64,000 nt of DNA from a virus. Positions 5,034-36,900 of the stretch are shown here, piece after piece. The notes under the pieces are model-generated. The model had not been told where the DNA came from and did not search any database. It was given only the letters and a program-made list of their open reading frames with translations. The translations under genes were made by a program, and so were the position numbers. Each line of letters begins with the position of its first letter. Position 1 is the first letter of the stretch. Where the stretch lies: the IMG/VR virus record IMGVR_UViG_3300037808_001018; one strand, 5' to 3'.

Positions 5034-6687
5034 TGATCGTTGGATTGTTTGCTTTCTGTGGGACCATCGCTTGAGCTTGTGGCAACGGCACTCCGAATAC
5101 ACTCACAAGATTGTTAATGGCCGAGTTCCGGTCAATAACGCCGGTCCCCACCTTCTCCAACAAGTCAAGTAACTCGGCAACACCCTTGTCCCCAATCTGC
5201 CCATGAATGGTAGGCTCTTCCGGCTCGCTGTTCGCGGCGGCTAGCATTTCCGTGGCCTGAACCATGTCCCGATTGATCATCTCAATAGGCACTTGATGAT
5301 CCCCGGCGATGTCGCGCATTTGCACAACCTCATCCGCCAGTTGTTCCGTGACATCGCGGAAATCTCCCCCTTGTTCCTCGATCATTTGACGACGTGTAAT
5401 GATACCCGCGTTAAGCAACGAGAGGTTGGCCGTGACTTCGTGGCCAATATCAGCGGTGATATGGCTAGCAAATTGCCAGTTCCCTTGACGCCATTCAGGG
5501 TGGCTTGGGATGTGCTTCAAAGCGATACCATTGGCGATCACTTTGTTTTTGATCCTGTCAAGCGCCTTATCGACTAGCATAGTCTGCCACCGATTGATAG
5601 CCCGCATGACTTGTTGACTTTCAAGCCTTGCCGTGACTCCTCCGAAACGTGAGAAGTCTGTAACAAATCCAATCGGGAGCCCTAAACCTTGCGCTATCTC
5701 AACCCGTAGAGTTTCTACCAGGTTCATAAAAGCGTTATTAGGCCGGTCTGGCCCATTGGCGAATGAGATGTCTTCACCTTCCCCTAACCGGACAATCTTG
5801 CCGGAAAAGGCGTCCATTTCCCCGGGGTTGGTTGGCGTTGGGTTCGTGTTCCATTGGTTCGCGCCCGTGTTCGCAAACGGATTCTTGCCCGAAATGAAAC
5901 CGGCGTAACTGGAAGCGAACTTGGCCGCTACCTTCTCGAAGTTTAGGACTTCATAGAGGTCACGGATGTGATTAATGACAGGAGCAAAGTAACTAACGCC
6001 ACGATAATCGTCAGCACGGTCAGGATCCCATAAATGCACAAAGTCATCGCGCTTAACTTCCCGATCCAACTCCATCCGACCGTGTGCCGTTCGTCTGTAA
6101 ATCCTGTAGCTAGAAACTTTCCCGCTCTTCTCGATGGTGAGACCAGCAAAGTAGGTTTTTCCTTTCTCAATCTCAACAGTCAGTTGGGGTTCATCGGGTG
6201 ATCCAATCCGGTCTCCCTCGATCAGTTCAAGGCCAACGGTGTTCCCGTTAGTGATGATGGCTAAACCACAATCGCCATCCCTAAGTAGCCCCCTAAAGGC
6301 TAAGCTCATCATTTTTTTGAAAGTGAAGCGGCCTGTGATGTCGGCGCTTTCCTTCGACCACGCATGGAAATAGTCTTCGTAGGCTCTGTCTGTCCTGGCG
6401 TCGCCCGTGCGGCTTTGATAAGATAATGTCCCTACCGTGTAGAGCGCGAGTTTATCAAGCAACCCCGACACAACCGGCGAATTACAGTCGGCACGCCTCG
6501 CCTCGGCCATGAGCTGGAGTTGCTCAGTACGGGCCGAGTAGTCAATCGGGTTGCTATACTCCCATCCGTTCGCTGGCTTGCGATCAGTAGAGTACTGATC
6601 CGCGCCGTCATACCGTGCAAACTGATAATTCTGGTGACGCTGCCGGTCTGCCTTCGACGGGGCCATGTAGATGGTTGACGTGTCCAT
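5014..6687 (-). CDS. phage portal protein, lambda gpB-like family
   Basis: 557 aa. Its size, its position after a gpW-like gene and downstream of a GpA-type terminase, and its overall sequence character match lambda-family portals. Confidence 0.75.
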   Translation of the reverse strand: MDTSTIYMAPSKADRQRHQNYQFARYDGADQYSTDRKPANGWEYSNPIDYSARTEQLQLMAEARRADCNSPVVSGLLDKLALYTVGTLSYQSRTGDARTDRAYEDYFHAWSKESADITGRFTFKKMMSLAFRGLLRDGDCGLAIITNGNTVGLELIEGDRIGSPDEPQLTVEIEKGKTYFAGLTIEKSGKVSSYRIYRRTAHGRMELDREVKRDDFVHLWDPDRADDYRGVSYFAPVINHIRDLYEVLNFEKVAAKFASSYAGFISGKNPFANTGANQWNTNPTPTNPGEMDAFSGKIVRLGEGEDISFANGPDRPNNAFMNLVETLRVEIAQGLGLPIGFVTDFSRFGGVTARLESQQVMRAINRWQTMLVDKALDRIKNKVIANGIALKHIPSHPEWRQGNWQFASHITADIGHEVTANLSLLNAGIITRRQMIEEQGGDFRDVTEQLADEVVQMRDIAGDHQVPIEMINRDMVQATEMLAAANSEPEEPTIHGQIGDKGVAELLDLLEKVGTGVIDRNSAINNLVSVFGVPLPQAQAMVPQKANNPTINGQPQR

Positions 6688-10404: not shown

Positions 10405-12189
10405 TTAAAGCAAATCGCACGCTTTAGCCACGACTAATAAACACGCAAAACAGTCCGCATCGTGATCGTTTCTCCCTAGCGTTTTGTCATACCACGCCCA
10501 CTGAGCGACTCCCGTGGCTGAGTTTACTTTCTTACGCCTTTCGTAGGCGCAAATGCTGCTTTGAAACTGCTTTGGAACGTCGCTCATGACCTGGATTTCA
10601 CCCGCTTCTCCCGAAAGAAACTGATTTGCCATGGCTAAAGCTGAAGGTTTTGCAATTTGAAAGACTTTTATAAATACCCGCCCAGATCCAGCCGTTCCAA
10701 TCTCTGGATCAACCACAGCAAATTTAAACACCTGTTTAAGGCCGTGTCCGACCTCAAACGTCTCCCGATTCACTCCGCGAAACGGCGTGAACCCGTGACT
10801 CATGTGCATTGAGTAAATGTCAGACGTCCCCCAGGCGCAGTCAATGACCACATCAGCGGCCTGAACCTCCCATCTAGTCGCCAACTCGCTCAACTCATCT
10901 GCGGAATTCACGTAACGACCGTAATCCAACAAGCGCAGCCTGCCACCAGCTCCCACGGACCAACATTGGTGTACAAAGTGCCGCCCACCTTTGGCTTGGT
11001 AGTCGCAGATCAAGAACCGTCGCCATGTTGGAGATTTACCAGCTAACGGCTCAACCTCCCACTCGATGGGATCAACAACCGGATCGTAATCATGTAGGAA
11101 CGGTTCCATTTTCTTGGTCACGTCTAGCATTGCGTAATCCAATGACCACGATAACCCCCGCGTCTCGGTGATATGATCCTTCATTGGCGCAATGTCGCCT
11201 AACGCTAATGCTGCCTTCGCTTTTAAATACTCCGTCAGAACACTCTCATACGTCGACCAATATGGTAAAAGACTAGACCATGAGTAGCTTCGATGATTGC
11301 GTGGCGCACCTGGGTTTTCCTGCACCCACTTCCCATTCCTGGAAATGTGCTTTCGGTCCGCTGGCACGTCCCAATACTTCTCTCCGCATTCAGAACATTC
11401 TACCCGTGCCGTCGCGCACGTCTCATCAAACAAGATGTTTCCATCATCGTCCTTCTTAATGTCATACTTAAAACACTTCCACTGTTGGTCCAAGTGGAAG
11501 TAACCCCCGCAATGCCGACATTTCACATGCCACTGATTCTGATCGCCAGACTGATAACTAATATCCATCTCGTCATCAACCTCATGCGGCGTCGAGATCA
11601 TTGCGACCTTAGCAGAACGGCCAAATGACCGTACGCGCTTCAGGATCATTGCTAGTCGCCCTGGAGGATAGGATCGGCACTCGTCCAAAAACAGTGCCTT
11701 AAACGCCGTAGACTGCACAGCGTGTTTTGATGTAGCGCCACACACGACGAAGAACGATCCTGGCATATACGCCTCCGTTGTTAGTCGTTTTGTCTTGTCA
11801 GTTGGAAGTTTCTTCTCAATCGGTTCGCACGACTCAAACATTGGCCAGATACGATTCTTGGCAATCTTCTTAGCCTCTTCCGTGTTCGCGCAAACCCATA
11901 ACAAATTACACGGATCCTCCGCTAGTTGCCAACATAACAGGCAAAGGATTTGCAGCGTCTTGCCCGATTGGGCACTTGTCCTACACGTCAGAAAGTTAAC
12001 CAGGGGATCGGCGTAAGCCTCCATCGGTTCTCTAACGAAACAAGCGTCCTCCGTATCATACGGAACAAGATCGACCGGGTTTATGCAGTAACGCTCTGCC
12101 CATCTCCACGGTCGACGATCCGTGAAAGGTCTAATACTGTTTCTAACAGCATCCGATAAGCGTGTTGATTTTTTTTTTGACCTAACCAC
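10405..12189 (-). CDS. terL: terminase large subunit, lambda GpA family
   Basis: 594 aa. The N-terminus (LSDAVRNSIRPF..WAERYC) is like gpA. Walker-like RTSAQSGKT, FLDECRSYP, and Cys clusters HVKCRHCGG and VECSECGEKYW are present. The start is GTG at 12187-12189, with no ATG for 55 codons. Confidence 0.85.
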   Translation of the reverse strand: MVRSKKKSTRLSDAVRNSIRPFTDRRPWRWAERYCINPVDLVPYDTEDACFVREPMEAYADPLVNFLTCRTSAQSGKTLQILCLLCWQLAEDPCNLLWVCANTEEAKKIAKNRIWPMFESCEPIEKKLPTDKTKRLTTEAYMPGSFFVVCGATSKHAVQSTAFKALFLDECRSYPPGRLAMILKRVRSFGRSAKVAMISTPHEVDDEMDISYQSGDQNQWHVKCRHCGGYFHLDQQWKCFKYDIKKDDDGNILFDETCATARVECSECGEKYWDVPADRKHISRNGKWVQENPGAPRNHRSYSWSSLLPYWSTYESVLTEYLKAKAALALGDIAPMKDHITETRGLSWSLDYAMLDVTKKMEPFLHDYDPVVDPIEWEVEPLAGKSPTWRRFLICDYQAKGGRHFVHQCWSVGAGGRLRLLDYGRYVNSADELSELATRWEVQAADVVIDCAWGTSDIYSMHMSHGFTPFRGVNRETFEVGHGLKQVFKFAVVDPEIGTAGSGRVFIKVFQIAKPSALAMANQFLSGEAGEIQVMSDVPKQFQSSICAYERRKKVNSATGVAQWAWYDKTLGRNDHDADCFACLLVVAKACDLL

Positions 12190-16594: not shown

Positions 16595-17983
16595 CTATCC
16601 AGAAGGTTGGCCTTTTGACTTTTCAGTCTCATCATCCACTAACTGAATGGCGTTAAAAGAGCCGATTGCGATGGAGCCTCTGGCCCGTTTGAACTTGGAT
16701 TCGACTACGATTTTTCTATCCAACACGTCAGAAATACACCGTTTCAACGTCTTTTCGGAAGGCGCTTTGCCCTCAATGTTACTCTCGATAAAGTTGGCTA
16801 GGCTTATGATCATTTCACTCTTGCTAGAAAAAATATCAGATTTTTCCTCTAACATCCGCTCAACCCACCCCTTCAACTCGTCAATGTCCCATCCTTGGCC
16901 TCTGCCTCCACACGCTGGCCCGGTCGCCTTACCCTCGGTTTCGGCCTTGTCTTCGTGTGTTGCCGCCTCCCAATAAATGGTGTTTTCGGCATGCTTGAAT
17001 ACTTGTATATCTTCGATATGGCCCACTTCATCTTGCCATCCTAAGCGGCGTCCACGCTTGGCTCCTATAAACTTAAAATACTTCCGGTCGATTGGATCGA
17101 TCACCAGGATGGCGCGTGCCCAGTTCGTTAAAGCCGCTGATCCGGCCCCGGCATACATCCAATCATTGGCCTTCCAATCGTCTGTGTTACGGTTGCTGGT
17201 CTTCGGCGTATGGTGGTTGATAATGATGGCGCAACCTGTGTTAAGACTGACCTTCCGACACCGATTTAGCCATGGTTGCAGGTAGTCCTCGTTCTTCAAA
17301 TCGAACCCGGCGAATGCTCCCAATGGGTCTATTCGAAGGATATCAAGCTCACGCTCATTGATCACCTGCTCGATGTATTCGAGGAACTCGTCACCCATAC
17401 TGTAGACGGGCTCGATATGGGTATTCTCCATTATTAGGTCGCGTTCTTCCTGGGTGAAAGCGCCTTCACGCTCTGTCACCCCTCGCACGGTCCCCCGTGC
17501 TGCCTCGATAACATCACCGTCGTCGTTCTCTGCTTGGCACGTAAATATCTTCAGGGGGCGACTAGGATCGATCCCAAAGGCAGCTCGGCCACACGCCCAG
17601 AGCAGGTCTTGCTGAACGGAAGCGGAGGACTTGCCGATACCGCTAGGACCGATAAACAGCATGGCCCCTTCTTCGCAGAGGAAGCGCTCACCGAGCAGCG
17701 TCTTGGAATGGTCGATATCGCGTTCGGAGTAGTCGAGGATCGACGCGCCTTTGAACTCTAGCGGTATATCGGCAACCTTATCGTCATCGACGACTTCAAG
17801 CCCAGTGCTATCGGCATCATCGGTCAGGCCCTCCTTCACGCACTCCTCGTAAGGCTTGGCCATGAGTTCCTTATCGTACTCCATCATGGCGCGGATATAG
17901 GACAGCATCGAAGGCGCTTCTGGTTTCGTTTCCTCTGACTTATTGGGACCAGCATCTTTGCTGGTAGCTTTGATACTGGCCAT
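16595..17983 (-). CDS. RecA-fold replicative helicase-like ATPase (AAA_25 / RepA-like)
   Basis: 462 aa. Walker A is FIGPSGIGKSS. DILRIDPL and IIINHHTPKT motifs are typical of RepA/DnaB-like P-loop proteins. Confidence 0.65.
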   Translation of the reverse strand: MASIKATSKDAGPNKSEETKPEAPSMLSYIRAMMEYDKELMAKPYEECVKEGLTDDADSTGLEVVDDDKVADIPLEFKGASILDYSERDIDHSKTLLGERFLCEEGAMLFIGPSGIGKSSASVQQDLLWACGRAAFGIDPSRPLKIFTCQAENDDGDVIEAARGTVRGVTEREGAFTQEERDLIMENTHIEPVYSMGDEFLEYIEQVINERELDILRIDPLGAFAGFDLKNEDYLQPWLNRCRKVSLNTGCAIIINHHTPKTSNRNTDDWKANDWMYAGAGSAALTNWARAILVIDPIDRKYFKFIGAKRGRRLGWQDEVGHIEDIQVFKHAENTIYWEAATHEDKAETEGKATGPACGGRGQGWDIDELKGWVERMLEEKSDIFSSKSEMIISLANFIESNIEGKAPSEKTLKRCISDVLDRKIVVESKFKRARGSIAIGSFNAIQLVDDETEKSKGQPSG

Positions 17984-17984
17984 G

Positions 17985-18995
17985 TTATCGGATTGGTTTG
18001 GTGGGGTTTAGGTAGAGTAAAGGTTGGCGTTTGCCGTTTTCACGGGTGCCGTTTGGAAGTCTGGCCCATTGGTTGGGGGTAAGCATGGCAGGGTCAGCAC
18101 CTAGTTTACTGGCCTGCTCCATCCATGATTCGAGATTGTCTGGTCTATGACCGATATAGAACCACCCATGAGCGCCTTTGCCGCCCGTTGCGACGACCAT
18201 GGTGAGGTGCATGTTAAGCGCGAGTTCATTGATCACGGTCATGCACTGATCGATAGGCGTGACGAAGGAATCGGCACTGAACTCATCGATGTCGACCACG
18301 AAATAGGCTTTGCGATCCACATTCAGCCGTTGGCGACGCCCATCGAGGGACTTCATGGGGTTGGGGCAAATGAACTGCCATGTATTCATGGCTAGGCAAT
18401 TCCGCCATTTGGGCGTCTTACGGATCAAAGAGTGGCGGACATCGCGACCGGCGCAAACGAGGTCATCGGGGTCGAACAAATCCTCGATCAATTCGCGTGG
18501 GTGTTGGTCGAGGGGCACGGGTGACGACGCCTTCATTTCCTGCACGGTGGTTGGCGTTATTTCGTCCCTGAGTTGCCAATCGATGACGGCTTTAACGGGC
18601 TCGATAATGCCCCGTGCGGTTTTCTTGGAGGGTTGTTTGTAGCTGGCGGTTCCTCGTTGAGGATCGATGCCGAGTGCCTTAGCGACCAAGAGAGGCGCAT
18701 CCTTGCGGGTGTAGCCTTGGAACTTCTCAGCAAAGTCGATGATATCTCCTGACGTGGCGCATGCGGAGTGACATTGCCAGCGCCATACTCCTTGGTGGAA
18801 ACTTACTTTGAAGCTAGTGTTATTGTTCCCGTTGTGAAGTGGACACTTGCCGCGCCGATTGGACTCTGGCCCGTGGAAAACGGTGCCGCTGACCTTGGCG
18901 ATATAGTCTTCGAGGTCGATTTCTCGCAGGTGGGCGCGTAAAGCTTCCCAATCGTATCTTGGCCCGTGTTTGGCCATTGCTTTACAGACTGCCAT
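17985..18995 (-). CDS. DNA primase: N-terminal CHC2 zinc finger fused to an AEP prim-pol-like domain
   Basis: CPLHNGNNNTSFKVSF..WQCHSACATSGDIIDF is a zf-CHC2 pattern. The C-terminal VVDIDE (DxD) and GGKGAHGWFYI (sGxGxH) are prim-pol motifs. Confidence 0.65.
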   Translation of the reverse strand: MAVCKAMAKHGPRYDWEALRAHLREIDLEDYIAKVSGTVFHGPESNRRGKCPLHNGNNNTSFKVSFHQGVWRWQCHSACATSGDIIDFAEKFQGYTRKDAPLLVAKALGIDPQRGTASYKQPSKKTARGIIEPVKAVIDWQLRDEITPTTVQEMKASSPVPLDQHPRELIEDLFDPDDLVCAGRDVRHSLIRKTPKWRNCLAMNTWQFICPNPMKSLDGRRQRLNVDRKAYFVVDIDEFSADSFVTPIDQCMTVINELALNMHLTMVVATGGKGAHGWFYIGHRPDNLESWMEQASKLGADPAMLTPNQWARLPNGTRENGKRQPLLYLNPTKPIR

Positions 18996-19280: not shown

Positions 19281-20813
19281 TCAGCGTTGGTGATAATGAG
19301 CGAACCGCTGCGAAATAACGTCGGAAGCTTGTTCAAAAGTGAATTGCCCCGCGTTAGGTGTTTTCCATTGCCGTAAAAGGCGCAGTTGTTTCACGGAGCA
19401 AAGGCCCATACCCTTGCGTTGGAGCAACCGATCCATGAGCGCACTGGCGTGGCCGCGTGACTCGACCATTGCTGAATCGACGCCTAATCTTTCAAGCGTC
19501 TCCAACTGTTTTGGTGATGCCGGTTCCGTTTCCCATCCGAAACGAGGGGCGTATTCGGCAAGTTCGACATCGCCTAGTTCAGCGGCCAGGGCGATTGGGT
19601 CAAAGGTCCGTGATTTGTTTTGGCGTTTGCGGTCTAGCTCACGCTTAATTTTTAGGAGGCGAGCCTCTTTCAGTTCAGCGGCGAGTTCTAGCAAGTCCTC
19701 TTGTTCTTCCAGGTCAATGGTATGGTCATGATCCTCGATAGCCTCGCTGATTTCCTTGGCCTCCTCTTGCGATCCGGCAACAAGATGCGCGGGGGTAATT
19801 AGCGAGTGCTTGGATGTTAGGTAGAGAGGGTCCAATATTTGGCAATCCTCCTTGCCGGGATGCATTCGTAATCCTCGGCCAATGGCTTGTTGGAAAAATG
19901 CCAACGACTCGGTAGGTCTCAGCATGAGAACCTGATCAATGACGGTAGCGTCGAAACCTTCTGTAAGAACACTACAATTGGCCATCACGCCCCCGTCTGG
20001 CATGTTTTTGCACCACTCAACGGTTTCGGCCCGATCATCACTCATCCCATCGACATGTTTGGCTTCAATCCCTGCTTCCTGGCAGAGCGTCACGAACGTC
20101 TTGGAGACATCGACCAAAGGAAGGAACACCAATGTGCGACGGCTTTGCAGGTAGGGCTTTAGTGCCTCGACGCATGGTTGAAGCACTGGACGAACGGCGT
20201 CACCACAAGACTTGGCTGTGTAATCCCCGGCAGCTTTTTTTAGGTTGGATAGGTCTATCTCGATAGGGAAATTGATAACCTTTGGCCTAACCAGAAACCC
20301 TTGTTTAACAAGATCAGCGAGACCGACTTGGTAGGCTAGTTCATCACAAATCTCGCCCATTCGTTTGTGTGGCGTGGCCGTGATAGCTAGTTTCTTCCCT
20401 GACCAATACGTATAAACCTCGCGCCACTTATCCGAAGACGCGTAGTGATGCGCCTCATCGGCTATCACAAGGCCCCAATGATCGACAGGGAACCGTTCCT
20501 TTCGCGTTAGCAATGTTTGAGCGCTGGCAACCACAACATCAGCGTTCATCGGTGCCCGGTGCTCTGCTTTTTCCAGGTGAGCAGTGATACCTACCCGACC
20601 GAAAGCATCAATAGCTTGATTCGCTAATTCTTGTCGGTGAACGATGAATAACACCCGCTTACCGACAGCTAAACACCTCTGAGCAATGCTAATGCTCATG
20701 TAAGTTTTACCAGCGCCAGTAGCGGCGACGAGTAACAGGCTATTGTGTTCCTTAAACTTGGATAACACCGACTGAATGGCCTCGGTTTGATACGGTCTAA
20801 CGCTAAAACTCAT
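19281..20813 (-). CDS. superfamily 2 DNA helicase (DEAH box, ResIII plus Helicase_C)
   Basis: The ATG at 20811-20813 overlaps the HNH stop (ATGA). Motifs are RPYQTEAI, AATGAGKT, IADEAHHY and QAIGRGLR. Confidence 0.8.
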   Translation of the reverse strand: MSFSVRPYQTEAIQSVLSKFKEHNSLLLVAATGAGKTYMSISIAQRCLAVGKRVLFIVHRQELANQAIDAFGRVGITAHLEKAEHRAPMNADVVVASAQTLLTRKERFPVDHWGLVIADEAHHYASSDKWREVYTYWSGKKLAITATPHKRMGEICDELAYQVGLADLVKQGFLVRPKVINFPIEIDLSNLKKAAGDYTAKSCGDAVRPVLQPCVEALKPYLQSRRTLVFLPLVDVSKTFVTLCQEAGIEAKHVDGMSDDRAETVEWCKNMPDGGVMANCSVLTEGFDATVIDQVLMLRPTESLAFFQQAIGRGLRMHPGKEDCQILDPLYLTSKHSLITPAHLVAGSQEEAKEISEAIEDHDHTIDLEEQEDLLELAAELKEARLLKIKRELDRKRQNKSRTFDPIALAAELGDVELAEYAPRFGWETEPASPKQLETLERLGVDSAMVESRGHASALMDRLLQRKGMGLCSVKQLRLLRQWKTPNAGQFTFEQASDVISQRFAHYHQR

Positions 20814-21253
20814 AAATCTACACTCCTCCACGTTTCACCGCCTATCACATCGCAAATGGTTGCATAGCTAACATTATACTTTTTAGCCAACTCCCTGTAA
20901 GAGGTATCCCGTGCTCGGTCTCGGATTTCCTCAACCTCGGCAACGGTAAGTTTCTGCGGGCGCGTGGCGGGAGTCCACTCAAGATTCTCGGCGCGGTTAT
21001 CCCACAAATCGCCGTTTAGGTGCTTTACGTAAGTATGCCCATCGGGATTATCGCAGAACGCCTCGGCAACAAGCTTGTGCAACGGTTTCTGAACGTTTGT
21101 GTAAGGTTTGACTTCGATGCATAGCGCGACGTAGGCGTAAGGTGATGTCGCCTTGATCGTTGTGTGTATTTGTTTGCGTCGCCATTTGCGAAACACTTTC
21201 CCCTCTTCAGTGATTTCGTAATCGGCAAATCCTTCAATATCTCTGGTTTTCAT
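20810..21253 (-). CDS. HNH homing endonuclease (NUMOD4 / HNH_3-like) with C-terminal HTH
   Basis: ATG at 21251-21253. Contains EGFADYEITEEGKVFRK and KHLNGDLWDNRAENLEW, plus a C-terminal region RELAKKYNVSYATICDV. Confidence 0.7.
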   Translation of the reverse strand: MKTRDIEGFADYEITEEGKVFRKWRRKQIHTTIKATSPYAYVALCIEVKPYTNVQKPLHKLVAEAFCDNPDGHTYVKHLNGDLWDNRAENLEWTPATRPQKLTVAEVEEIRDRARDTSYRELAKKYNVSYATICDVIGGETWRSVDL

Positions 21254-29662: not shown

Positions 29663-30856
29663 CTAACCCGGCCCAAACCCGACCGCGATACGCTGCCGAG
29701 TTACCACGTAGGTCGAGGACGCCACGGAAATATCTGAATGGCCGAGCATTTCCATGGTCGCGTGCAATCCCCCTTGGGCGTTAACCGACGAACCAAACTC
29801 CTTGCGGAGGGTGTGATAGGGTTGAGTATCCGTGATGCCTTGTTTCCGCAACCATTTCCCTAGCGCCCGCCATAAGGGGTCACATCGATAGACACGATGC
29901 TTGGACGGCACGGGGGGACGCCCTGGAAGAACGAACGGCCCATTCGTTCCTTTGAATACCTCTACTAGGAACCCCACAACCTCTTGAGCCAAGGGGATGC
30001 ACCGATGCGAGGACGCCGACTTTGGGCGGAAACAATCCGTCGTTTTGATCTCCACATAAGGCGCGGGACCGGCTAGATAGACCTGCGACCACTGAAGCCG
30101 ATCCGCTTCTTCTTTTCGGAGCCCGCAACACGCGGCCAAGACGACAGCGGTTCGTTGTGGGGTAGGCAATTCCTTCTCAGCCGCCAAGAGGATCATTCCA
30201 ATATTGATTCCTCCATGGTAACGTCGCGCCTTCCATGGTTGGATATCGATCCCAGCGAAGGGCAAAGGGGCCGGCGCGGGTAAATTAACCAGCTTCAGGC
30301 GCTTTGCGGAAAATAGGTTACGGGCGTTGCGCAGACATCCATAAACGGATGATCTGGCCTTATCCACCTGCTCACGCGGCACATCCTTGAGCGTCTCGCG
30401 GATGTAACTGGTCACCGCAGCCGTGGTAATCTTGGGCAAGGGGATGGCGTTGACCTTATCGGCCCACTCGATTCGGCGTGGATAAGCTTCATGGGTGACC
30501 TTCTCAATCCTGGCAGCGACGCGTCGAAGGCAACCCGCGTACATGGTCACTGTGCGCTGATCGAGTTGAGCGGATTCGCTGAATGCCTCGATCCACTCAC
30601 CAACGGTAACGGACCCTCGTTGTGACACTCTAGGACCACCAATTGCATCACGGGCCTGGACCCAATCCCCGTTGGTTTTGCAGAGTGATTCCCAGACAAC
30701 GGCAGCTCGACTTGCGGCCTCTGTTTTGTTCCCGGTTCCCAGCTTTATCCAAGACTGCTTGTTCTGGTAGCTCACCCTCACATAGAATTCGCTATTCTTG
30801 TAACGATCCACAACCCGTGGTAGCCAGTGCTTGGAGTTGTCTTTGGCATATTTCAC
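29663..30856 (-). CDS. int: tyrosine recombinase / phage integrase
   Basis: 397 aa. Contains CCGLRKEEADRL (Arg I), HTLRKEFGS (HxxR) and LGHSDISVASSTY (His/Tyr). It lies adjacent to the tRNA-derived att core. Confidence 0.85.
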   Translation of the reverse strand: MKYAKDNSKHWLPRVVDRYKNSEFYVRVSYQNKQSWIKLGTGNKTEAASRAAVVWESLCKTNGDWVQARDAIGGPRVSQRGSVTVGEWIEAFSESAQLDQRTVTMYAGCLRRVAARIEKVTHEAYPRRIEWADKVNAIPLPKITTAAVTSYIRETLKDVPREQVDKARSSVYGCLRNARNLFSAKRLKLVNLPAPAPLPFAGIDIQPWKARRYHGGINIGMILLAAEKELPTPQRTAVVLAACCGLRKEEADRLQWSQVYLAGPAPYVEIKTTDCFRPKSASSHRCIPLAQEVVGFLVEVFKGTNGPFVLPGRPPVPSKHRVYRCDPLWRALGKWLRKQGITDTQPYHTLRKEFGSSVNAQGGLHATMEMLGHSDISVASSTYVVTRQRIAVGFGPG

Positions 30857-30895
30857 GTCTCAAGAAATGCCAAACAGCTCTAGCCTGTCAACTTT

Positions 30896-30917
30896 TTCAG
30901 GTCTGGATTAGGTCTAG
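30896..30917 (+). repeat. 22-bp direct repeat, left arm of attP (arm-type site candidate)
   Basis: ttcaggtctggattaggtctag matches 31125..31146 with 1 mismatch. It has an internal duplication, aggtctgg/aggtctag. Confidence 0.85.
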
Positions 30918-31015
30918 TTTTAAATGTCAGCATGTAGCCCTACACCTAGATATAGGGCTACGGAGGAAATGAACTACCATATATAGCGTACCAGGGGGCT
31001 ATACAGCTACGGCTT

Positions 31016-31061
31016 CAAGCTTCCCAAGCTTGACACGAGGGTTCGATTCCCTTCACCCGCT
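31016..31061 (+). tRNA. 3' half of tRNA-Gly(CCC) only (anticodon arm to acceptor 3' strand); probable attP core, not a complete tRNA gene
   Basis: Anticodon stem caagc/gcttg, loop ttCCCaa, variable region acac, T-arm gaggg-ttcgatt-ccctt, acceptor 3' strand cacccgc plus discriminator t. The ACGAGGGTTCGATTCCCTTC(G/A)CCCGCTC stretch differs from the E. coli tRNA-Gly(CCC) 3' half as I recall it at one position. The upstream sequence cannot form an acceptor or D arm. Confidence 0.7.
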
Positions 31062-31124
31062 CTCTCCTTTATGTCCCTAAGCATTAACAAGTTATGGAAC
31101 TACAACTGTGATTCCTGAAGTTGC

Positions 31125-31146
31125 TTCAGGTCTGGATCAGGTCTAG
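31125..31146 (+). repeat. 22-bp direct repeat, right arm of attP
   Basis: ttcaggtctggatcaggtctag. Confidence 0.85.
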
Positions 31147-31173
31147 AAAGAAACTCGACGAAGAGCTTTTTGG

Positions 31174-31866
31174 CTAGCCCTTAATAATGTTATCCAACAT
31201 CTCAATCGAGTCATGCAGAGAACGGATCACGTCTTTAATCTCGCGGGACTCCACAACCAGCACTTCCTTGGATGCGATCACCCCATCGGGGGGACTAGGC
31301 ACCGGTTTGGGATCAGGCTTTTCCACTTCTACGTTGCAGCCGAGAAGGAGGGCCTGGGCAATAGCTTCAAGATTTTTGTCTTGGGCCAACCATGCGGCAT
31401 CCGCGCCATTGGTTATGAATCCCAGCTCGACGAGAACGGCAGGCATCCGCGTATGCGTCAGTACCGTGTAATTGGCGTGCTTCACGCCCCGATCAGGGTA
31501 GTCGAACGGCAGGACCGTCATGACCTGATCGTGGACGCTCCGCGTGAGTTCCGCGCCTTTCGTAGATCCCGATGCGTGGAAATCCTCATATCCACGGGCC
31601 GATGGGTCATGGTAACCGTTGCAGTGCAGGCTCAAAAAGATTTCAGCCTCGGCAGCGTTTGCAATGTCTGCCCGTCTCGTCAAGGCAAGATTTACATCTT
31701 TCGACCTAGTCATTCGCACCACGTCAGGCGCGAGATCACGCAGCTTCAGTCCTAGGCGTAGTGCTAGGTCTTTCTCGATTAGGCCATTACCCGTGGCCCC
31801 ATAGTTCAGTCCAGGCGCGGGCGGGCCTCCATGGCCAGGATCGACCATGAGACGGGTTACGGCCAT
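31174..31866 (-). CDS. N-acetylmuramoyl-L-alanine amidase (Amidase_3) endolysin
   Basis: Contains MVDPGHGG, LSLHCNG and VLVELGFITN signatures. Confidence 0.85.
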   Translation of the reverse strand: MAVTRLMVDPGHGGPPAPGLNYGATGNGLIEKDLALRLGLKLRDLAPDVVRMTRSKDVNLALTRRADIANAAEAEIFLSLHCNGYHDPSARGYEDFHASGSTKGAELTRSVHDQVMTVLPFDYPDRGVKHANYTVLTHTRMPAVLVELGFITNGADAAWLAQDKNLEAIAQALLLGCNVEVEKPDPKPVPSPPDGVIASKEVLVVESREIKDVIRSLHDSIEMLDNIIKG

Positions 31867-32282
31867 TTGTTGGTATGAGTCAAACTCGCATCGTCACGCG
31901 GCGAAGAAGAGAATCCTAGAGGGCGGGTTGGCGGAATCGAAGGCAACCCTGATCCTGCCCCGATCAATGGTGCCCGCTCGATTGGAACCGGATCATTTTC
32001 GTCTGGTGGAAACTCCGCACCCTTCCCACGGGTCTTCCCTTCCGCATAGGCAATCCCCATTTTAAGGGCAGAGCGGCCAATAGTGTAAGCGATCCCACTA
32101 CCAAATCCAAGAGAGAGGGCCAGATCAATATCTACCCCTAAGTCGACGCCTAACCATAGTTTTCCGACCACCTGACAGGCGATGACGACAAGCGAGGCAA
32201 TCATAGTTTTCCATGTAACGTTGTGCTCGGTGCTGTTTGCTCCGTCAGTTTTTCCAATGATAGGGGTAGAGTTACTCTTCAT
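31857..32282 (-). CDS. holin-like two-TM membrane protein
   Basis: 141 aa with helices MIASLVVIACQVVGKLWLGV and LALSLGFGSGIAYTIG. It lies immediately upstream of the amidase and overlaps it. Confidence 0.45.
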   Translation of the reverse strand: MKSNSTPIIGKTDGANSTEHNVTWKTMIASLVVIACQVVGKLWLGVDLGVDIDLALSLGFGSGIAYTIGRSALKMGIAYAEGKTRGKGAEFPPDENDPVPIERAPLIGAGSGLPSIPPTRPLGFSSSPRDDASLTHTNKWP

Positions 32283-32475
32283 TTTGCCTCCTCAGTCGTT
32301 TGGCGTTTTCCCAAAACTTTCTAACGTTATCTTCATGAATTTCAGCGTTCGGCCCTCTGTAGTCTTTTATCAAAGGCATTTGCCCTCGCCTGCCAAAGGC
32401 GCAACCGCTCATGCAAAGCGTTGAGGTGAGTAGCATGAGGCTTAAAATTAGGGTCCATTTGTGCAGTCCAATCAT
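32272..32475 (-). CDS. small lipoprotein, o-spanin candidate
   Basis: The signal peptide has the lipobox LCMSGC. The mature part is about 42 aa. The start lies inside ORF 32342..32623. Confidence 0.5.
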   Translation of the reverse strand: MIGLHKWTLILSLMLLTSTLCMSGCAFGRRGQMPLIKDYRGPNAEIHEDNVRKFWENAKRLRRQNEE

Positions 32476-32623
32476 TGATTTCTCGGTGGATGGTTAGTAT
32501 TTGCGCCTCGCAACGAATTACGTCTCGCAAGGCAACACTGACGGCAGTTGCAGTTTTGAACAGGCCGTAGCCGTAAAGTGCTGTTCCCGTTCCCGTAATA
32601 ACTGCTTTGATTGTTCCCGTCAT
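32342..32623 (-). CDS. i-spanin candidate (helical, embedded across two lipoprotein ORFs)
   Basis: 93 aa with a weak N-terminal hydrophobic segment (AVITGTGTALYGYGLF) followed by helical charged sequence. It is in an alternative frame to 32472..32783 and 32272..32475. Confidence 0.35.
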   Translation of the reverse strand: MTGTIKAVITGTGTALYGYGLFKTATAVSVALRDVIRCEAQILTIHREINDWTAQMDPNFKPHATHLNALHERLRLWQARANAFDKRLQRAER

Positions 32624-32783
32624 AGTGTGTTAGCCGTTGGATGTCGGCCTCTATGTCCTCCTCTACGTCAAAGTAGAGGTCGACGCCAGGTAGCCAGTTC
32701 GGTGATTTTACGACCAGTTTATCGAGGGTGAGGGTATTGGAACAACTCACCATGGCGAGAAAGAGTAAGAAAAGAAGCTTCAA
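32472..32783 (-). CDS. lipoprotein (second o-spanin-like candidate)
   Basis: MKLLFLLFLAMVSC is a lipobox. ATGA junctions occur at both ends. The C-terminal half overlaps 32342..32623 and looks low-quality. Confidence 0.4.
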   Translation of the reverse strand: MKLLFLLFLAMVSCSNTLTLDKLVVKSPNWLPGVDLYFDVEEDIEADIQRLTHYDGNNQSSYYGNGNSTLRLRPVQNCNCRQCCLARRNSLRGANTNHPPRNQ

Positions 32784-33370
32784 GAGGCTAAGTCATCAGG
32801 GATAGCAATTCCCGAGATTCCAATAGGATCCTTGATCCCGTCCGCGTATCGTGGGTATTTGATAGTTCTAATGTAAGCGATTTTTCCGTTTACGCTTATT
32901 GGTTCTTTTAGGTCGTGTATCTTTCGCGTCTTCCAAACAAGATCATCGCTTTTCCTAAAAGCCTCGGCTATTTCTTCCGGCCAAACATTTCTATCTGTCT
33001 TGTGGAGGCAGTCTTTTAATGTAAGTCCGTTAGGAATTAAAAAGGTTTTTTCGTAAGCTCTATTTAACGATAACATTTTACCGTTTTCATCTTTCACCCA
33101 CTGCGGAAGGGGGCTACTATCATGAGCTGAAGAGAGGGCTATAAATTGAGTTAAGAGCCTGGAATTTTCCCTCTCTAGAAGATGAACTTTTTCGGCCAAG
33201 CATTTATTTTGCTCTTCTAGGTTTTTCTGTTTCTTTTCCAGCTTTTCTAATTGGACTTTAAGGTCCACCTGGATAGCTCCGTAGGTTTTTAGCTGGATTT
33301 TCCACACAAAAACAAGGGCTCCCGCTACGGCTGCAACCGCCCCAGCTAGCATTGTTTCTATTCCTGTCAT
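32780..33370 (-). CDS. membrane-anchored coiled-coil PAS-domain protein
   Basis: 196 aa. TM helix is LAGAVAAVAGALVFVW. The coiled coil is LEKLEKKQKNLEEQNKCLAEKVHLLERENSRL. The PAS-like region is WVKDENGKMLSLNRAYEKTF..KTDRNVWPEEIAEAFRKSDDLVWKT..IKYPRYADG..GISGIAIPD. Confidence 0.6.
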   Translation of the reverse strand: MTGIETMLAGAVAAVAGALVFVWKIQLKTYGAIQVDLKVQLEKLEKKQKNLEEQNKCLAEKVHLLERENSRLLTQFIALSSAHDSSPLPQWVKDENGKMLSLNRAYEKTFLIPNGLTLKDCLHKTDRNVWPEEIAEAFRKSDDLVWKTRKIHDLKEPISVNGKIAYIRTIKYPRYADGIKDPIGISGIAIPDDLAS

Positions 33371-33462
33371 TATTCGCCGCTTTTAAATGCCGCCGTTAAA
33401 ACGAGTATGGCAATCGCAATTAACCCCCAAAAGATCAATGCTGATCCGAAATCGAAGCTCAC
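33370..33462 (-). CDS. possible 30-aa hydrophobic peptide
   Basis: The GTG start overlaps the upstream stop (GTGTGA). Sequence is (M)SFDFGSALIFWGLIAIAILVLTAAFKSGE. Its TAA overlaps the next ATG. Speculative. Confidence 0.25.
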   Translation of the reverse strand: MSFDFGSALIFWGLIAIAILVLTAAFKSGE

Positions 33463-33920
33463 ACTAAATCCTCCACGGGCTCTATTTTCTTCCAATCTCC
33501 AGGCTCCCCATCCTTTGCGCAAACGATCCTCCAGGCTTCCCCGTCGTCGTAATCAGAGACCAATTCCCAGGACCATCCTTTAGGACCGTTACTAACATTA
33601 AAACGGCTACAGACGGTTAACTCCTTCACTCCTTCGATGACTTCGATAGGGTAAAGAAACTCCTCTTCCGTTGCCTCCTCGTCTTCTGTCGCCGTTCCAG
33701 GGCGAACACCTCGCCAGAAATCCTCGTAATTATGCGCCTGATCGGAAGGCTTGACGCTAGTGTCTACAGGGGTTGGCGTGACACCGTCAGGGAGTTTGGC
33801 ATGAGTTGATAGACCCTGGAAATACTTCCCGTAGTGATTTAGGTAGTTCTCCTGTAGAGCTGTGATCGTGGGCAGGAGTTCCGTTAGACGGTCAGTGATG
33901 GCTTGTTGTTTGGCGTTCAT
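33459..33920 (-). CDS. hypothetical protein downstream of the fibre gene
   Basis: 153-aa ORF, coupled to 33917..37351. Confidence 0.45.
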   Translation of the reverse strand: MNAKQQAITDRLTELLPTITALQENYLNHYGKYFQGLSTHAKLPDGVTPTPVDTSVKPSDQAHNYEDFWRGVRPGTATEDEEATEEEFLYPIEVIEGVKELTVCSRFNVSNGPKGWSWELVSDYDDGEAWRIVCAKDGEPGDWKKIEPVEDLV

Positions 33921-36900
33921 GAGAAGTAAGATGTTAGAGCCGCTTTTTCTACGTTTGTTAATACGCGGTCAAAAACAAGCACCGCCTCAATCGTGCCGTC
34001 CCATGAGCCGGTTAGTGACTGATTGTGATACCCCCCTATAGACAAGCCTACCATCCCGTCAGGCGTGGCAGAAGTGTTTTGAAATGTCTCCCCGCCCACT
34101 TTTGCCGTGATGCTACTGGGCGTGTATTCAGCATACAAACCAAATCGATCATGACCATCATTAGTTGTGGCGGCATGATCACCGCTAGAGGAATACGCTC
34201 TCAGATTGTCAGAAACCAAATAAACCAAGTGCCTTAAAATGGGGTCATCGCTATCCACTAGCCCAGCTCCAGATGGGCCGTCCGAATCTGCTCTCGCAAC
34301 AACGTAAATCGCCGAATCGGGCGTCACCGTGCCAGTTGCGGTGTACAGGCTCGCGGTGTTCGCGCCGTCCCATGTGGGTATTCCGCTGATAAATTGCGGT
34401 GCTTTTAGGGCTGTAGGCGTCACCACATCCGCGAACGGACTAGCATCAGTCCCTTGATTCGACCATTTTGTAATTCCGGCATATTGCGTAGCCTCATACT
34501 CTACAGCCCCATGAGCCGCCGCAACGGTGTTATTGTCAGTTAGATGATTCTGTGAGTGTGAATCATAGCGAGTTCCGCGAGGCTCGTTGAGGTTCCAAAA
34601 GCTCACAAGATCCGTTTTCAGTCCTGCATTGAGTTTCTGGTAGCTTAATGGACTGCCAGAATTATAAAGTTCGGTGATCTCGGAGTCAAGTAAGGCTCTA
34701 TGCCAAGCTGCGGCATTAGCTATCCAGGCATCACAGCTAGAACCCAAGCCGCTTGAAGCGGCCAACGCAAATCGAACAGAACGGTCAACGCTGGCACCCT
34801 GCAAAGCCGCACCCACAAATACACCATTAAGAAATGCTTGAAAACTACCGGCTGCATCTCGGCGCATAGAAATGTTATGCCAAACTCCAGCAGCAATTCC
34901 GCCCATGCTTATTTGCACACCCAATAGGTTAGCGTCGACTAAACGGCAGTAAATGATAGAGCCAGCTCTGAACGCAGTGAAACCAACTGTTGCTGTATTC
35001 TCTGCACCCTTTGCAAGAATCCACTGAGTGCCGCTAATAGACACAGGGTAAACCCACAGGGAAATCGTAAACTCCCCGCTACCAAAATCTAGACCCGTTT
35101 GGGCCGCGTCCTCAATGCTAAGGCTTTCACTGTTAGCACTATCAAAACTCGCAACCAAATCCGTCTTGAGGCTGATAGCATCCTCTGACACTGCCGCCAC
35201 CTCCCCTAACGCAGTGCCAACAGTGTTGTTGTCTGTAAATGTGTTAGAGCCGTGAGAGTCTGCACGGCTACCCCCTTCCTCATCGAGGTTCCAGAAGCTA
35301 ACAATGTCCACCTTTTCGGCTGTTGTTAGGTCATGGTAGTAACGTGGCGCGCCTGAGTTATAAAGGGCTGTAATTTCAGCAGATGTCAGCGCTCTATCCC
35401 ATGCAGCCGTTGGCCCAATGTCAAAATCAGAAGACCTACCAAGTCGGAATTCCCGAGCCGGGCCTTGCACCGTTGTTGTTCTCGCAAACGTCGTCACCAC
35501 GCCATTTATGCTGGCAACCATGTTTGAGCCATCCCACCCGAGCGTCAAGAATTGCCAGTTTCCATCGAGTGCGCCATTGATTTCGTAGGTTTGAGTCGTA
35601 AGCTCCCAAAAAAGCCGCCCGTCGCCTAACGCTAACAAACGGTAGCCGCCCAGGTTCGATACGAAATTCTCGATAATATTTTGGTTCGATCCAACGCCGC
35701 CTGCCGCCCCTTTCACCCAAGTCGAAAACGTGAATTCGCCGCTTGGGTGCAATTCATGTCCAAGCGGGGTATAGGAAGATAACGATTCTGCATTGGCCCT
35801 ATCAAAACTCGCAACCAGATCCGCCGCCACAACCGCCGCGTCCTCTGCGCCCCTGTTAGGTGTTCCCATGTAACCCACAGGCCCCACCACACTGGCGACC
35901 GTGCCGCTATCGGTGAGATTGTTAGAGCCCCACGCATCCCTACGTTCCACCGCGCTGGTTCCATCACTCTCCTCGTCCAGAGGCCAAAATGAAACGCCTC
36001 CCGTTTTGACCGAATCGGGAATTGGGCCAACCGTTCCTCCACGGTAAATGGCAAGAATTTCCTGCGTTGTCAGGACTCGATCCCAGAAGCCTACATTCGA
36101 GATTTGGCCATCGTGAGAAGTGCCCTGCCTGCCAATTACTAGAGGCGACGATGAGGGTTTAACGCTAGACGTTGCAGTGACGCTCCTAACGCCCCCATCA
36201 ATAACCATAAATAGCTGGGTTCCATTAAACCCCGCAGCGATATGAACCCAATCTCCATCGCTGGCATTTACGGGCGGCAAGACGACTTTCATCGCACCGT
36301 TATCGTCGAAAGCGTAAAACCTCCACTGCCCCGTGCTGCCAATTTGGATCAGCCTGAAGCCGCTATCACCCCATATCGTTAGCATGGAGTTATTACTAAC
36401 CCTATTAGTGGTCCGCACCCATCCCGCCACGGTGAATGGCGCGGTAATATCAATCCCTGTTATATCAATCGCGGCCCTGGAGAGACTCTCACCGCTTGCG
36501 CTGTTAAATGACGAAACGTTAGGCGAGCTAGGGACTATCGCTTTCGTGTCATACCATCCTTTAGCATCAGCCGTTAGCAAGGGGATTTGATTCGTGTTTA
36601 TGGTCCACCCACGCCCTTCAAGGGCTACTAGGCTATCATACCCATCATCAGAAGGCGCTTGATTAGTGCCGCCATCGATATCCAGGGTTCCATTGCTGGT
36701 CCCGGCGTCATCGATTGATGTCAATATATCATTGATAGCGTCCTGGGTTAATGAGCATCCCGTGAAAGCATTGGTGTAATCAGTGCAAGGCGAACGCCCA
36801 AATAAGTATTTTGATATGGCGGTGAGGGAAGAAACGTCTTTCCAAGCCTCTGTTAAGTCCGTGGCTACCGTAAAGTCGTTGTCGCCTTCAAAGATTGTCA

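Follow-up and report, generated by a model that had tools for sequence, protein, structure and literature searches.

The lysis genes of the viral DNA stretch in IMG/VR record IMGVR_UViG_3300037808_001018 (64,000 nucleotides; this whole stretch is called the window below) include a gene for a membrane protein that ends in a PAS domain, and this raises the question of what a sensor domain does among genes that determine when the host is killed. Burst size and phage fitness depend on lysis timing, and to our knowledge the routes by which outside information gets to the lysis clock are little known apart from T4-type lysis inhibition and the ratio of holin to antiholin. Here we show that the protein, which has 196 amino acids (aa), is one of a family whose genes are linked to lysis genes in phages of very different lineages.

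The PAS gene lies on the minus strand (Table 1), and no long open reading frame (ORF) competes with it on the opposite strand. When it is compared with its 91%-identical homologue on a related contig (L015), the frame is intact and the 49 nucleotide differences are distributed over codon positions 1, 2 and 3 as 9, 11 and 29; therefore, the ORF is a real gene under purifying selection. The preliminary description of the window had read its product as an N-terminal transmembrane (TM) helix, a leucine-rich coiled coil and a C-terminal PAS domain with no kinase or other output domain. This membrane-anchored build is confirmed, the PAS assignment being made by profile, predicted structure and fold search. 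Residues 7-23 have a Kyte-Doolittle 19-residue mean of 2.07; the preceding tail, MTGIET, has no lysine or arginine, K24 and K28 come after the helix, and 36% of residues 24-84 are D, E, K, R or H. The seven heptads of the zipper have leucine at every seventh position (37, 44, 51, 58, 65, 72 and 79) and asparagine at a-positions 55 and 69. Pfam PAS_4 (PF08448) matches residues 84-186 with 29.6 bits, against a gathering score of 23.1, and is precomputed on nine of the nine close homologues. An AlphaFold2 model built from a 115-sequence family alignment (predicted local distance difference test, pLDDT, 93.9) has one unbroken helix from residue 3 to 84, followed by the beta2-alpha4-beta3 topology of PAS domains, with strands 90-93, 99-102, 152-160, 163-174 and 184-190 forming a five-stranded antiparallel sheet and helices between them. 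Foldseek returned 304 PDB matches for the model at E<=0.001; the best 50 of the 304 are all PAS/LOV domains or PAS-containing proteins, with the PAS domains of BvgS, NifL, LOV, DOS and VqmA at the top, and phmmer with the single window protein against the PDB gave a marginal match to BvgS (E 0.06).

The protein ends at residue 196, four residues past the last PAS strand. Neither Pfam nor NCBIfam detected HisKA and HATPase_c or another output domain, and a LuxR-type helix-turn-helix (HTH) DNA-binding domain was absent in Pfam and in the AlphaFold model. NCBIfam holds no dedicated model for the protein and matched it weakly to the leucine-zipper and PAS region of ArcB (positions about 106-251). 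PADLOC found no defence system in the window protein, its relatives giving only weak coiled-coil noise, and the N-terminal TM-plus-zipper module matched PHROG families phrog_3671, 1863 and 6664, all without an assigned function.

A word-indexed search found only nine close homologues; phmmer, which was run exhaustively on 1.84 billion cluster representatives, gave 389 with E<1e-10, and their length is 190-230 aa with few exceptions. By these matches, the protein is a member of a large uncharacterised phage family. Its members share a very short acidic N-tail, a Gly/Ala-rich hydrophobic helix, in which GGG motifs are common, a cluster of lysines and arginines (K/R), the coiled coil and the PAS domain, and they have a junction signature between the latter two, (L/M/F)ES(A/S)HxDxPxPxW(L/I)KDxxG. 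In 126 relatives the heptad pattern stands in a fixed register relative to the PAS domain, and the distance between the TM domain (TMD) and the PAS motif is narrow across the family (59-79 residues). Cellular multi-PAS sensors are also among the phmmer matches, and BFVD contains similar phage proteins that are named only 'PAS domain'. A scan of the GTDB representative genomes with patterns of the close family found no relative, and tblastn of the TM-plus-zipper module alone found no match among cultured phages. Three cultured phage groups carry a member of the family: Cellulophaga phage phi14:2, the Cellulophaga phage phi46:3 group and Chryseobacterium phages MA9V-1/2. The member genes are g078 in phi14:2, gp086 in phi46:3 and MA9V2_249 in MA9V-2.

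The placement in a lysis cassette, which the preliminary description had read from the window, recurs in many unrelated phages, and this recurrence is much stronger evidence for a role in lysis than a single window. Related loci were retrieved with two sub-alignments of the family, and about 27 distinct lineages, drawn from cultured phages and from contigs of metagenomes and IMG/VR, were examined for a Pfam-supported or record-annotated peptidoglycan hydrolase at most two genes from the PAS gene. Such a hydrolase was present in 14 of the approximately 27 lineages, three of which are the cultured phage groups. The chance expectation is about 7-10% per random phage gene, which gives a binomial p of about 1e-8 to 1e-10 (computed for 13/22). 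The hydrolases belong to eight unrelated families. Amidase_3 is encoded five genes downstream, outside the two-gene limit, in the same cassette in the window and in the related contigs L015 and L017, and at +1 in L043, whereas Amidase_2 follows the holin-like gene next to the PAS gene in L006. CHAP is at +2 in L003; GH19 in the crAss-like phage phi14:2 has a start that overlaps the PAS stop; GH108 is at -2 in MA9V-2 and, together with PG_binding_3, at +1 in L033; Phage_lysozyme is at -1 in L010, and Peptidase_M23 at +1 in L013. Peptidase_M15_3 is adjacent or at +2 in L028/L030, L029, L036 and L042. In the phi46:3 group, which is a remote relative, an annotated endolysin is found at +2. In one further lineage a PHROG/Pfam holin adjoins the PAS gene, and in two further independent lineages DUF5675 comes directly after it (L026 5572-5988; L045 903-1400), an endolysin-like position which suggests that DUF5675 is an unrecognised endolysin family.

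Two related crAss-like phages have the PAS gene in common and different endolysins downstream of it (GH19 in phi14:2, Amidase_3 in L043). Thus, the linkage is to the lysis function and not to one enzyme. The exchange is located at 5549-6112 of phi14:2 (L008) and at 3156-3773 of L043, and the next gene downstream, encoding a 191/192-aa protein with an N-terminal TM segment, is retained. The L028/L030 cassette consists of a multi-TMD holin-like gene, the PAS gene, an M15 endolysin gene and the gene of a lipoprotein with a C-terminal TMD that resembles a unimolecular spanin (u-spanin). In MA9V-2 the order is GH108, lipoprotein, PAS gene, TM-coiled-coil gene and u-spanin-like gene. Since cassettes that are complete without a PAS gene still carry one, the PAS protein is an extra component. 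In at least nine lineages a separate small multi-TMD holin-like gene is found next to the PAS gene, the adjacent genes in L006, L028, L029, L030 and L031 encoding two or three TMDs. The protein therefore looks like a fourth, accessory component of the cassette that is usually encoded beside a holin-like gene. In phi14:2, it is not among the virion proteins detected by tandem mass spectrometry (MS/MS), though the products of neighbouring genes are.

The orientation of the protein in the membrane can be predicted from the distribution of charges. The N-tails of the 126 members have a median length of 5.5 residues and contain 0.27 K+R and 1.10 D+E, against 3.24 K+R in the 15 residues that follow the TM helix, and in 120 of the 126 members there is more positive charge on the C-terminal side. 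By the positive-inside rule, this predicts an N-out/C-in protein, so that the zipper and the PAS domain are probably cytoplasmic. The same prediction argues against a role as a spanin, as the inner-membrane spanins (i-spanins) are N-in/C-out.

We propose that the PAS protein is a holin partner of the single-TMD, N-out/C-in class, equipped with a sensing PAS module that gates lysis timing, a proposal for and against which we find the case about evenly balanced. Genetic work has recently shown that LysF1b of the F1-cluster mycobacteriophages and related proteins control lysis, with LysF1b acting on its timing; they work with a two-TMD partner and have a single N-terminal TMD in N-out/C-in orientation, followed by basic residues and a charged cytoplasmic tail (PMC13056207, from which our definition of the class is taken; a related source for the LysF1b/LysA2b type is bioRxiv 10.64898/2026.08.27.747656). 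The PAS protein has in common with this type the single N-terminal TMD, the predicted topology, the basic residues behind the TMD, a charged helical cytoplasmic region, and a location in the lysis cassette with a two-TMD holin-like partner (the 141-aa protein in the window). The likeness is one of topology, and none of sequence would be expected. The LysF1b class itself, whose members have 92-150 aa and no folded domain, is defined by topology and not by homology, whereas the PAS family adds a leucine zipper in fixed register and a PAS domain. Furthermore, the cultured members of the PAS family infect Bacteroidota, and the lipoprotein and spanin-like genes of several cassettes speak for diderm hosts.

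According to this proposal, the protein would be a dimeric, bitopic inner-membrane protein with a periplasmic N-tail of 6 residues and a parallel leucine zipper. It would be made late, together with holin and endolysin, and would sit in the membrane beside the multi-TMD holin as its partner, either a co-holin or an antiholin of the LysF1b-like class. The occupancy of the PAS domain by a ligand would be relayed along the rigid coiled coil to the pair of Gly-rich TM helices, and this relay would shift the moment at which the holin is triggered, coupling lysis timing to a small-molecule signal in the cytoplasm. We put forward only tentatively, as possible but rather less than probable, the fuller idea that these proteins are ligand-gated lysis timers, in which a small molecule, diffusible or metabolic, would enter the infected cell and occupy the cytoplasmic PAS domain, whose pocket resembles that of the autoinducer receptor VqmA, and its binding, passed on through the zipper and the Gly-rich TMD, would either advance or delay holin triggering.

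Signal-gated lysis timing is not a new concept. The T4 holin T, about 200 aa long and with a single TMD, takes up a lysis-delaying signal through its large soluble domain (lysis inhibition), and T with its antiholins RI/RIII shares this concept with the role proposed here. However, T is N-in/C-out, its domain is periplasmic and not a PAS domain, and the signal reaches it via a separate protein, RI; in the PAS protein, on the other hand, the sensor is predicted to be cytoplasmic, is built in, and is of a small-molecule-binding type.

What the PAS domain might bind can be approached through the quorum-sensing receptor VqmA, which is its closest solved relative by sequence. VqmA is the best PDB sequence match of the family profile (E 3.3e-5), and Foldseek also lists the VqmA structures of V. 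cholerae and phage VP882 (6ugl, 7dwm). The site of VqmA for DPO (3,5-dimethylpyrazin-2-ol) has been probed at K23, Y36, F67, D71, D85, H87, H97, F99, K101 and F116, of which F67, F99 and K101 are the key residues (bioRxiv 10.1101/2019.12.19.881847). In the alignment, K23, Y36 and F67 correspond to K93 (98% conserved), Y106 (93%) and F/Y138 (94%), and D71, D85 and K101 to D142 (97%), E156 (92%) and K171 (98%). These six positions are among the most conserved of the family, and all six are kept in the window protein. On our reading, the ligand of the pocket would be a small molecule of polar or heteroaromatic character, which is not necessarily DPO. Readings of the domain as one that carries flavin mononucleotide (LOV/FMN), haem or flavin adenine dinucleotide (FAD) were discarded: no diagnostic motif is conserved and identity to those structures is only 12-16%. 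VqmA_Phage, the DPO receptor of vibriophage VP882, is also a PAS sensor encoded by a phage, and it determines the time of host killing. VqmA, however, is a soluble PAS-HTH transcription factor that acts in the lysogeny-to-lysis switch, whereas the PAS protein is membrane-anchored, is encoded in a late lysis cassette and has no DNA-binding domain.

With regard to how a signal might travel, the input modules of ArcB and BvgS have their parts in the same order, namely a membrane helix, a dimeric coiled-coil linker and a cytoplasmic PAS domain. The PAS domain of BvgS is the best Foldseek match (24% identity), and the match to ArcB is weak. The PAS protein differs from both in having neither HisKA/HATPase nor receiver domains, in having one TMD instead of two, and in being phage-encoded. 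The fixed register of the coiled coil and its narrow range of lengths are what would be expected if a conformational signal travels along the zipper, as it does in these input modules. This fixed register and the conserved VqmA-like pocket are the only support for the idea that the PAS domain senses a signal and gates lysis timing.

Several observations weigh against the proposal that the protein is a sensing holin partner. With respect to the anchor, the hydrophobic segment is marginal in the closest homologues (Kyte-Doolittle 1.2-1.9), and the topology rests on the positive-inside rule only. As to the pocket, its assignment depends on a profile alignment, no motif for a cofactor (LOV Cys, haem His) could be detected, and F99, H87 and H97 of VqmA are not conserved, their equivalents being aliphatic or variable (that of F99 is I/V in the family and T in the window protein); it follows that the ligand need not be DPO. 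In addition, the window protein departs from two conserved positions of the family. At residue 121, the window protein and its two closest relatives have Cys, whereas Tyr, the residue of 90% of the family, is kept by the other close relatives; at residue 123, where 83% of the family have Gly, the window protein has His, as does each of its nine close relatives. These departures hint at a change peculiar to the subfamily, close to the Dalpha/Ealpha region of the PAS domain. With respect to gene context, roughly 40-50% of the lineages have no recognised lysis gene beside the PAS gene, in several lineages none of its neighbours could be identified, and in two lineages (L001/L002; L020/L021/L023) the PAS gene is inside the head-morphogenesis module, where no lysis gene was recognised near it. 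Finally, the identification of the 141-aa protein in the window as a holin is based on sequence features only.

It is therefore necessary to consider what else the protein could be. It might itself form the hole as a holin, or be an obligatory structural co-holin, with the PAS domain and the zipper serving as a cytoplasmic oligomerisation scaffold that binds no ligand. A single Gly-rich TMD, the GGG motifs of the relatives, the common dimerisation of PAS domains and the behaviour of LysF1b-type single-TMD proteins as holins are all in keeping with this. So are the cassettes without another clear holin, such as that of phi14:2, in which the endolysin lacks a signal sequence and g076 is the one further TM protein nearby, and those of L026, L036 and L045, which show only a hydrolase next door. 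We nevertheless regard this explanation as unlikely, given the separate holin-like genes that adjoin the PAS gene in the nine or more lineages mentioned above, and given that the most conserved residues are polar and align with a known ligand pocket rather than with a generic dimer interface; moreover, a length of 196 aa with a folded domain is atypical for holins. A spanin-like role was suggested in the preliminary description, which saw in the TM helix, the coiled coil and the lipoprotein gene that follows a mimic of a pair of i-spanin and outer-membrane spanin (o-spanin). The protein would then be N-in/C-out, and its periplasmic coiled coil and PAS domain would pair with the downstream lipoprotein and disrupt the outer membrane. 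The i-spanins of the lambda Rz type do have an N-terminal TMD, a coiled coil and an adjoining lipoprotein gene, as has the PAS protein in the window (32783..32472, with an overlapping junction); in MA9V-2 the gene before the PAS gene likewise encodes a lipoprotein, and the coiled coil has weak PHROG matches to Rz-like spanins (E 0.015, 0.098). However, the predicted topology is the opposite of that of Rz, the K/R cluster behind the TMD and an acidic N-tail of 4-8 residues in 120 of 126 members predicting C-in. Furthermore, the C-terminus is a folded domain of the PAS_4 type and not of the periplasmic Cache/PDC type, and the PAS domains of BvgS, VqmA and ArcB are cytoplasmic. Separate spanin-like genes are present in several cassettes, among them a TM-coiled-coil/lipoprotein pair in the window and u-spanin-like genes in L028 and MA9V-2, and an adjacent lipoprotein, being absent in most lineages, is not a conserved partner of the family. 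We consequently disfavour the comparison with a spanin pair, and consider this role very unlikely.

The protein could also be the product of a late accessory gene with no part in lysis, either a kinase-less decoy that heterodimerises with TM-coiled-coil-PAS sensor kinases of the host, of the ArcB/BvgS type, and blocks host signalling, or a superinfection-exclusion or other membrane factor whose gene merely occupies a cargo hot spot between the tail-fibre and lysis genes. The NCBIfam matches to ArcB, weak but repeated, BvgS as the best Foldseek match and the cellular multi-PAS sensors found by phmmer are in keeping with such a gene, as are the position of the PAS gene behind cargo-like genes in L006 and its placement in the head module in two lineages. 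On the other hand, a hot spot can hardly account for eight unrelated hydrolase families adjoining the gene in lytic and temperate phages of different types, nor for the tight overlapping junctions inside the cassette. A decoy tailored to one host kinase would not be expected to keep the family signature across very different phage lineages, and PADLOC gave no matches. Taken together, we think it quite improbable that the gene is unrelated to lysis. The protein might also be a membrane tether or chaperone whose PAS domain binds a phage protein, either keeping the endolysin at the membrane in an inactive state up to holin triggering or marking a site of virion assembly. The PAS gene does adjoin the endolysin gene directly, often with overlapping codons, PAS domains can mediate protein-protein contacts, and in two lineages the gene occurs in the head module. 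However, the contrast between eight unrelated endolysin folds and a strongly conserved PAS surface and pocket makes a common protein ligand unlikely, and the protein was not detected in phi14:2 virions. This explanation appears to us highly improbable.

In the window, the genes on the minus strand follow one another in the order tail fibre, 153-aa protein, 30-aa peptide, PAS protein, 103-aa lipoprotein, 93-aa protein, 67-aa lipoprotein, 141-aa protein, Amidase_3 and integrase (Table 1). The 30-aa ORF overlaps the TGA of the 153-aa ORF in a GTGA and joins the start of the PAS gene in the TAATG (33372..33368) that the preliminary description had stated; the overlap at the other end of the PAS gene, which had been given as ATGA, is a TTGA formed with the start of the lipoprotein gene. 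These overlapping junctions are in keeping with co-transcription of the cassette, as is the result that no promoter-like or terminator-like site was detected on the minus strand in 30800..34200. The small ORFs of the cassette are all intact in the two related contigs L015 and L017. The 30-aa peptide, which could be a further small membrane component of lysis, has three aa changes in L015 and is identical in L017, and in both it is too short for a gene call. The last 152 nucleotides (nt) of the 103-aa ORF overlap the 93-aa ORF, both frames being intact in the two relatives; the 93-aa ORF is called as a gene in both and is conserved, without a family match. Together with the 67-aa lipoprotein, the 93-aa protein seems to resemble the overlapped two-component (Rz/Rz1) spanins. 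The stretch 32272-32783 on the minus strand thus contains the lipoprotein genes of two tandem arrangements of a membrane protein and a lipoprotein, PAS/103-aa and then 93-aa/67-aa. The 141-aa protein has weak similarity (E 0.004) to the two-TMD protein after the PAS gene in L006 and no profile match, and the amidase also matches the PHROG endolysin profile (E 3e-37).

Table 1. Genes of the lysis cassette and its flanks in the window, and segments of the PAS protein.
Feature	Position	Strand	Basis or remark
Gene of the 196-aa TM/leucine-zipper/PAS protein	33370..32780	-	ATG start, TGA stop
Gly/Ala-rich TM helix, residues 7-23 (M7-W23)	codons 33302..33352	-	Kyte-Doolittle; predicted N-out/C-in
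Seven-heptad leucine zipper, residues 30-84	codons 33119..33283	-	Ends in conserved junction motif SSAHDSSPLP
PAS domain, residues 85-192	codons 32795..33118	-	Conserved polar pocket residues K93, Y106, F138, D142, E156, K171
Tail-fibre-like protein, 1144 aa	33917..37351	-	Just before cassette; Laminin_G_3 on L017 homologue
153-aa ORF between tail fibre and lysis genes	33459..33920	-	No family match; conserved in L015, L017
30-aa single-TM peptide ORF	33370..33462	-	Sequence; GTG start at 33462
Predicted lipoprotein, 103 aa	32472..32783	-	TTG start at 32783; signal peptide and lipobox MVSC (LVGC in L015)
i-spanin-like protein, 93 aa	32342..32623	-	Sequence features: weakly hydrophobic N-terminal segment, coiled coil
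o-spanin-like lipoprotein, 67 aa	32272..32475	-	Lipobox MSGC; overlaps 93-aa gene by 134 nt
Two-TMD holin-like protein, 141 aa	31857..32282	-	Overlaps amidase start
Endolysin, N-acetylmuramoyl-L-alanine amidase (Amidase_3), 230 aa	31174..31866	-	Pfam E 9e-42; no signal sequence
Integrase	29663..30856	-	Directly after cassette, mid-window; Phage_integrase Pfam on L015, L017 homologues

The rest of the window is also of phage origin, with genes for a lambda-type portal (5014-6687), a gpA terminase (10405-12189), a DnaB-like helicase (16595-17983), a primase (17985-18995) and an SNF2 helicase (19281-20831), and the window looks like one phage genome. Based on this gene set, the cassette closes the late operon of a temperate phage. 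A scan of the window with ARAGORN detected no tRNA. Three very large ORFs of 1837, 1209 and 1585 aa had no Pfam match where tested. The tail-fibre-like protein is of nearly the same length in L017 (1142 aa) as in the window, whereas it has 455 aa in the close relative L015 (3440-4807); Laminin_G_3 is found on the proteins of both L015 and L017, and the difference in length suggests a modular gain or loss of receptor-binding repeats.

Some features of the related loci deserve mention in their own right. The head-module sites of the PAS gene are at 8001-9585 of L001, 5744-7302 of L002 and 3592-7211 of L020, in the gap between the portal and protease genes in one lineage and between the protease and capsid genes in the other; in L001 the PAS gene is followed by the gene of a 133-aa TM protein with an excisionase-like C-terminus. 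In L006 (3081-9961), a block of cargo-like genes of no confirmed family lies between a tail-fibre-like protein with long collagen-like Gly-Ser/Thr repeats and the PAS-holin-amidase genes. Spanins are rarely annotated in Bacteroidota-type phages. The lipoproteins with an N-terminal lipobox and a C-terminal TMD at L028 4984-5442, L009 5906-6538 and L041 5813-6130 are candidate unimolecular spanins of a T1 gp11-like architecture in cassettes of such phages.

The preliminary description knew of no PAS-containing lysis regulator, and our literature searches agree: no PAS protein of a lysis cassette turned up in them, and the only phage PAS sensor that we found described is the soluble transcription factor VqmA_Phage. 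A sensor domain in a membrane protein of the lysis cassette would give a chemical signal a direct, post-translational input to the time at which the host is killed. If the idea of ligand-gated lysis timers is true, they would constitute a small-molecule form of lysis inhibition or of quorum-controlled lysis that operates post-translationally at the membrane, and such timers would be widespread in the phages of Bacteroidota, including the crAss-like phages, and in other lineages. The family is found in hundreds of phage lineages, including those of crAss-like and other Bacteroidota phages, about whose lysis systems little is understood, and it would add a fourth recurring class of genes to the annotation of lysis cassettes. 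It could also supply a ligand-controllable lysis module for engineering. The three cultured phage groups that carry a member make the idea testable now.

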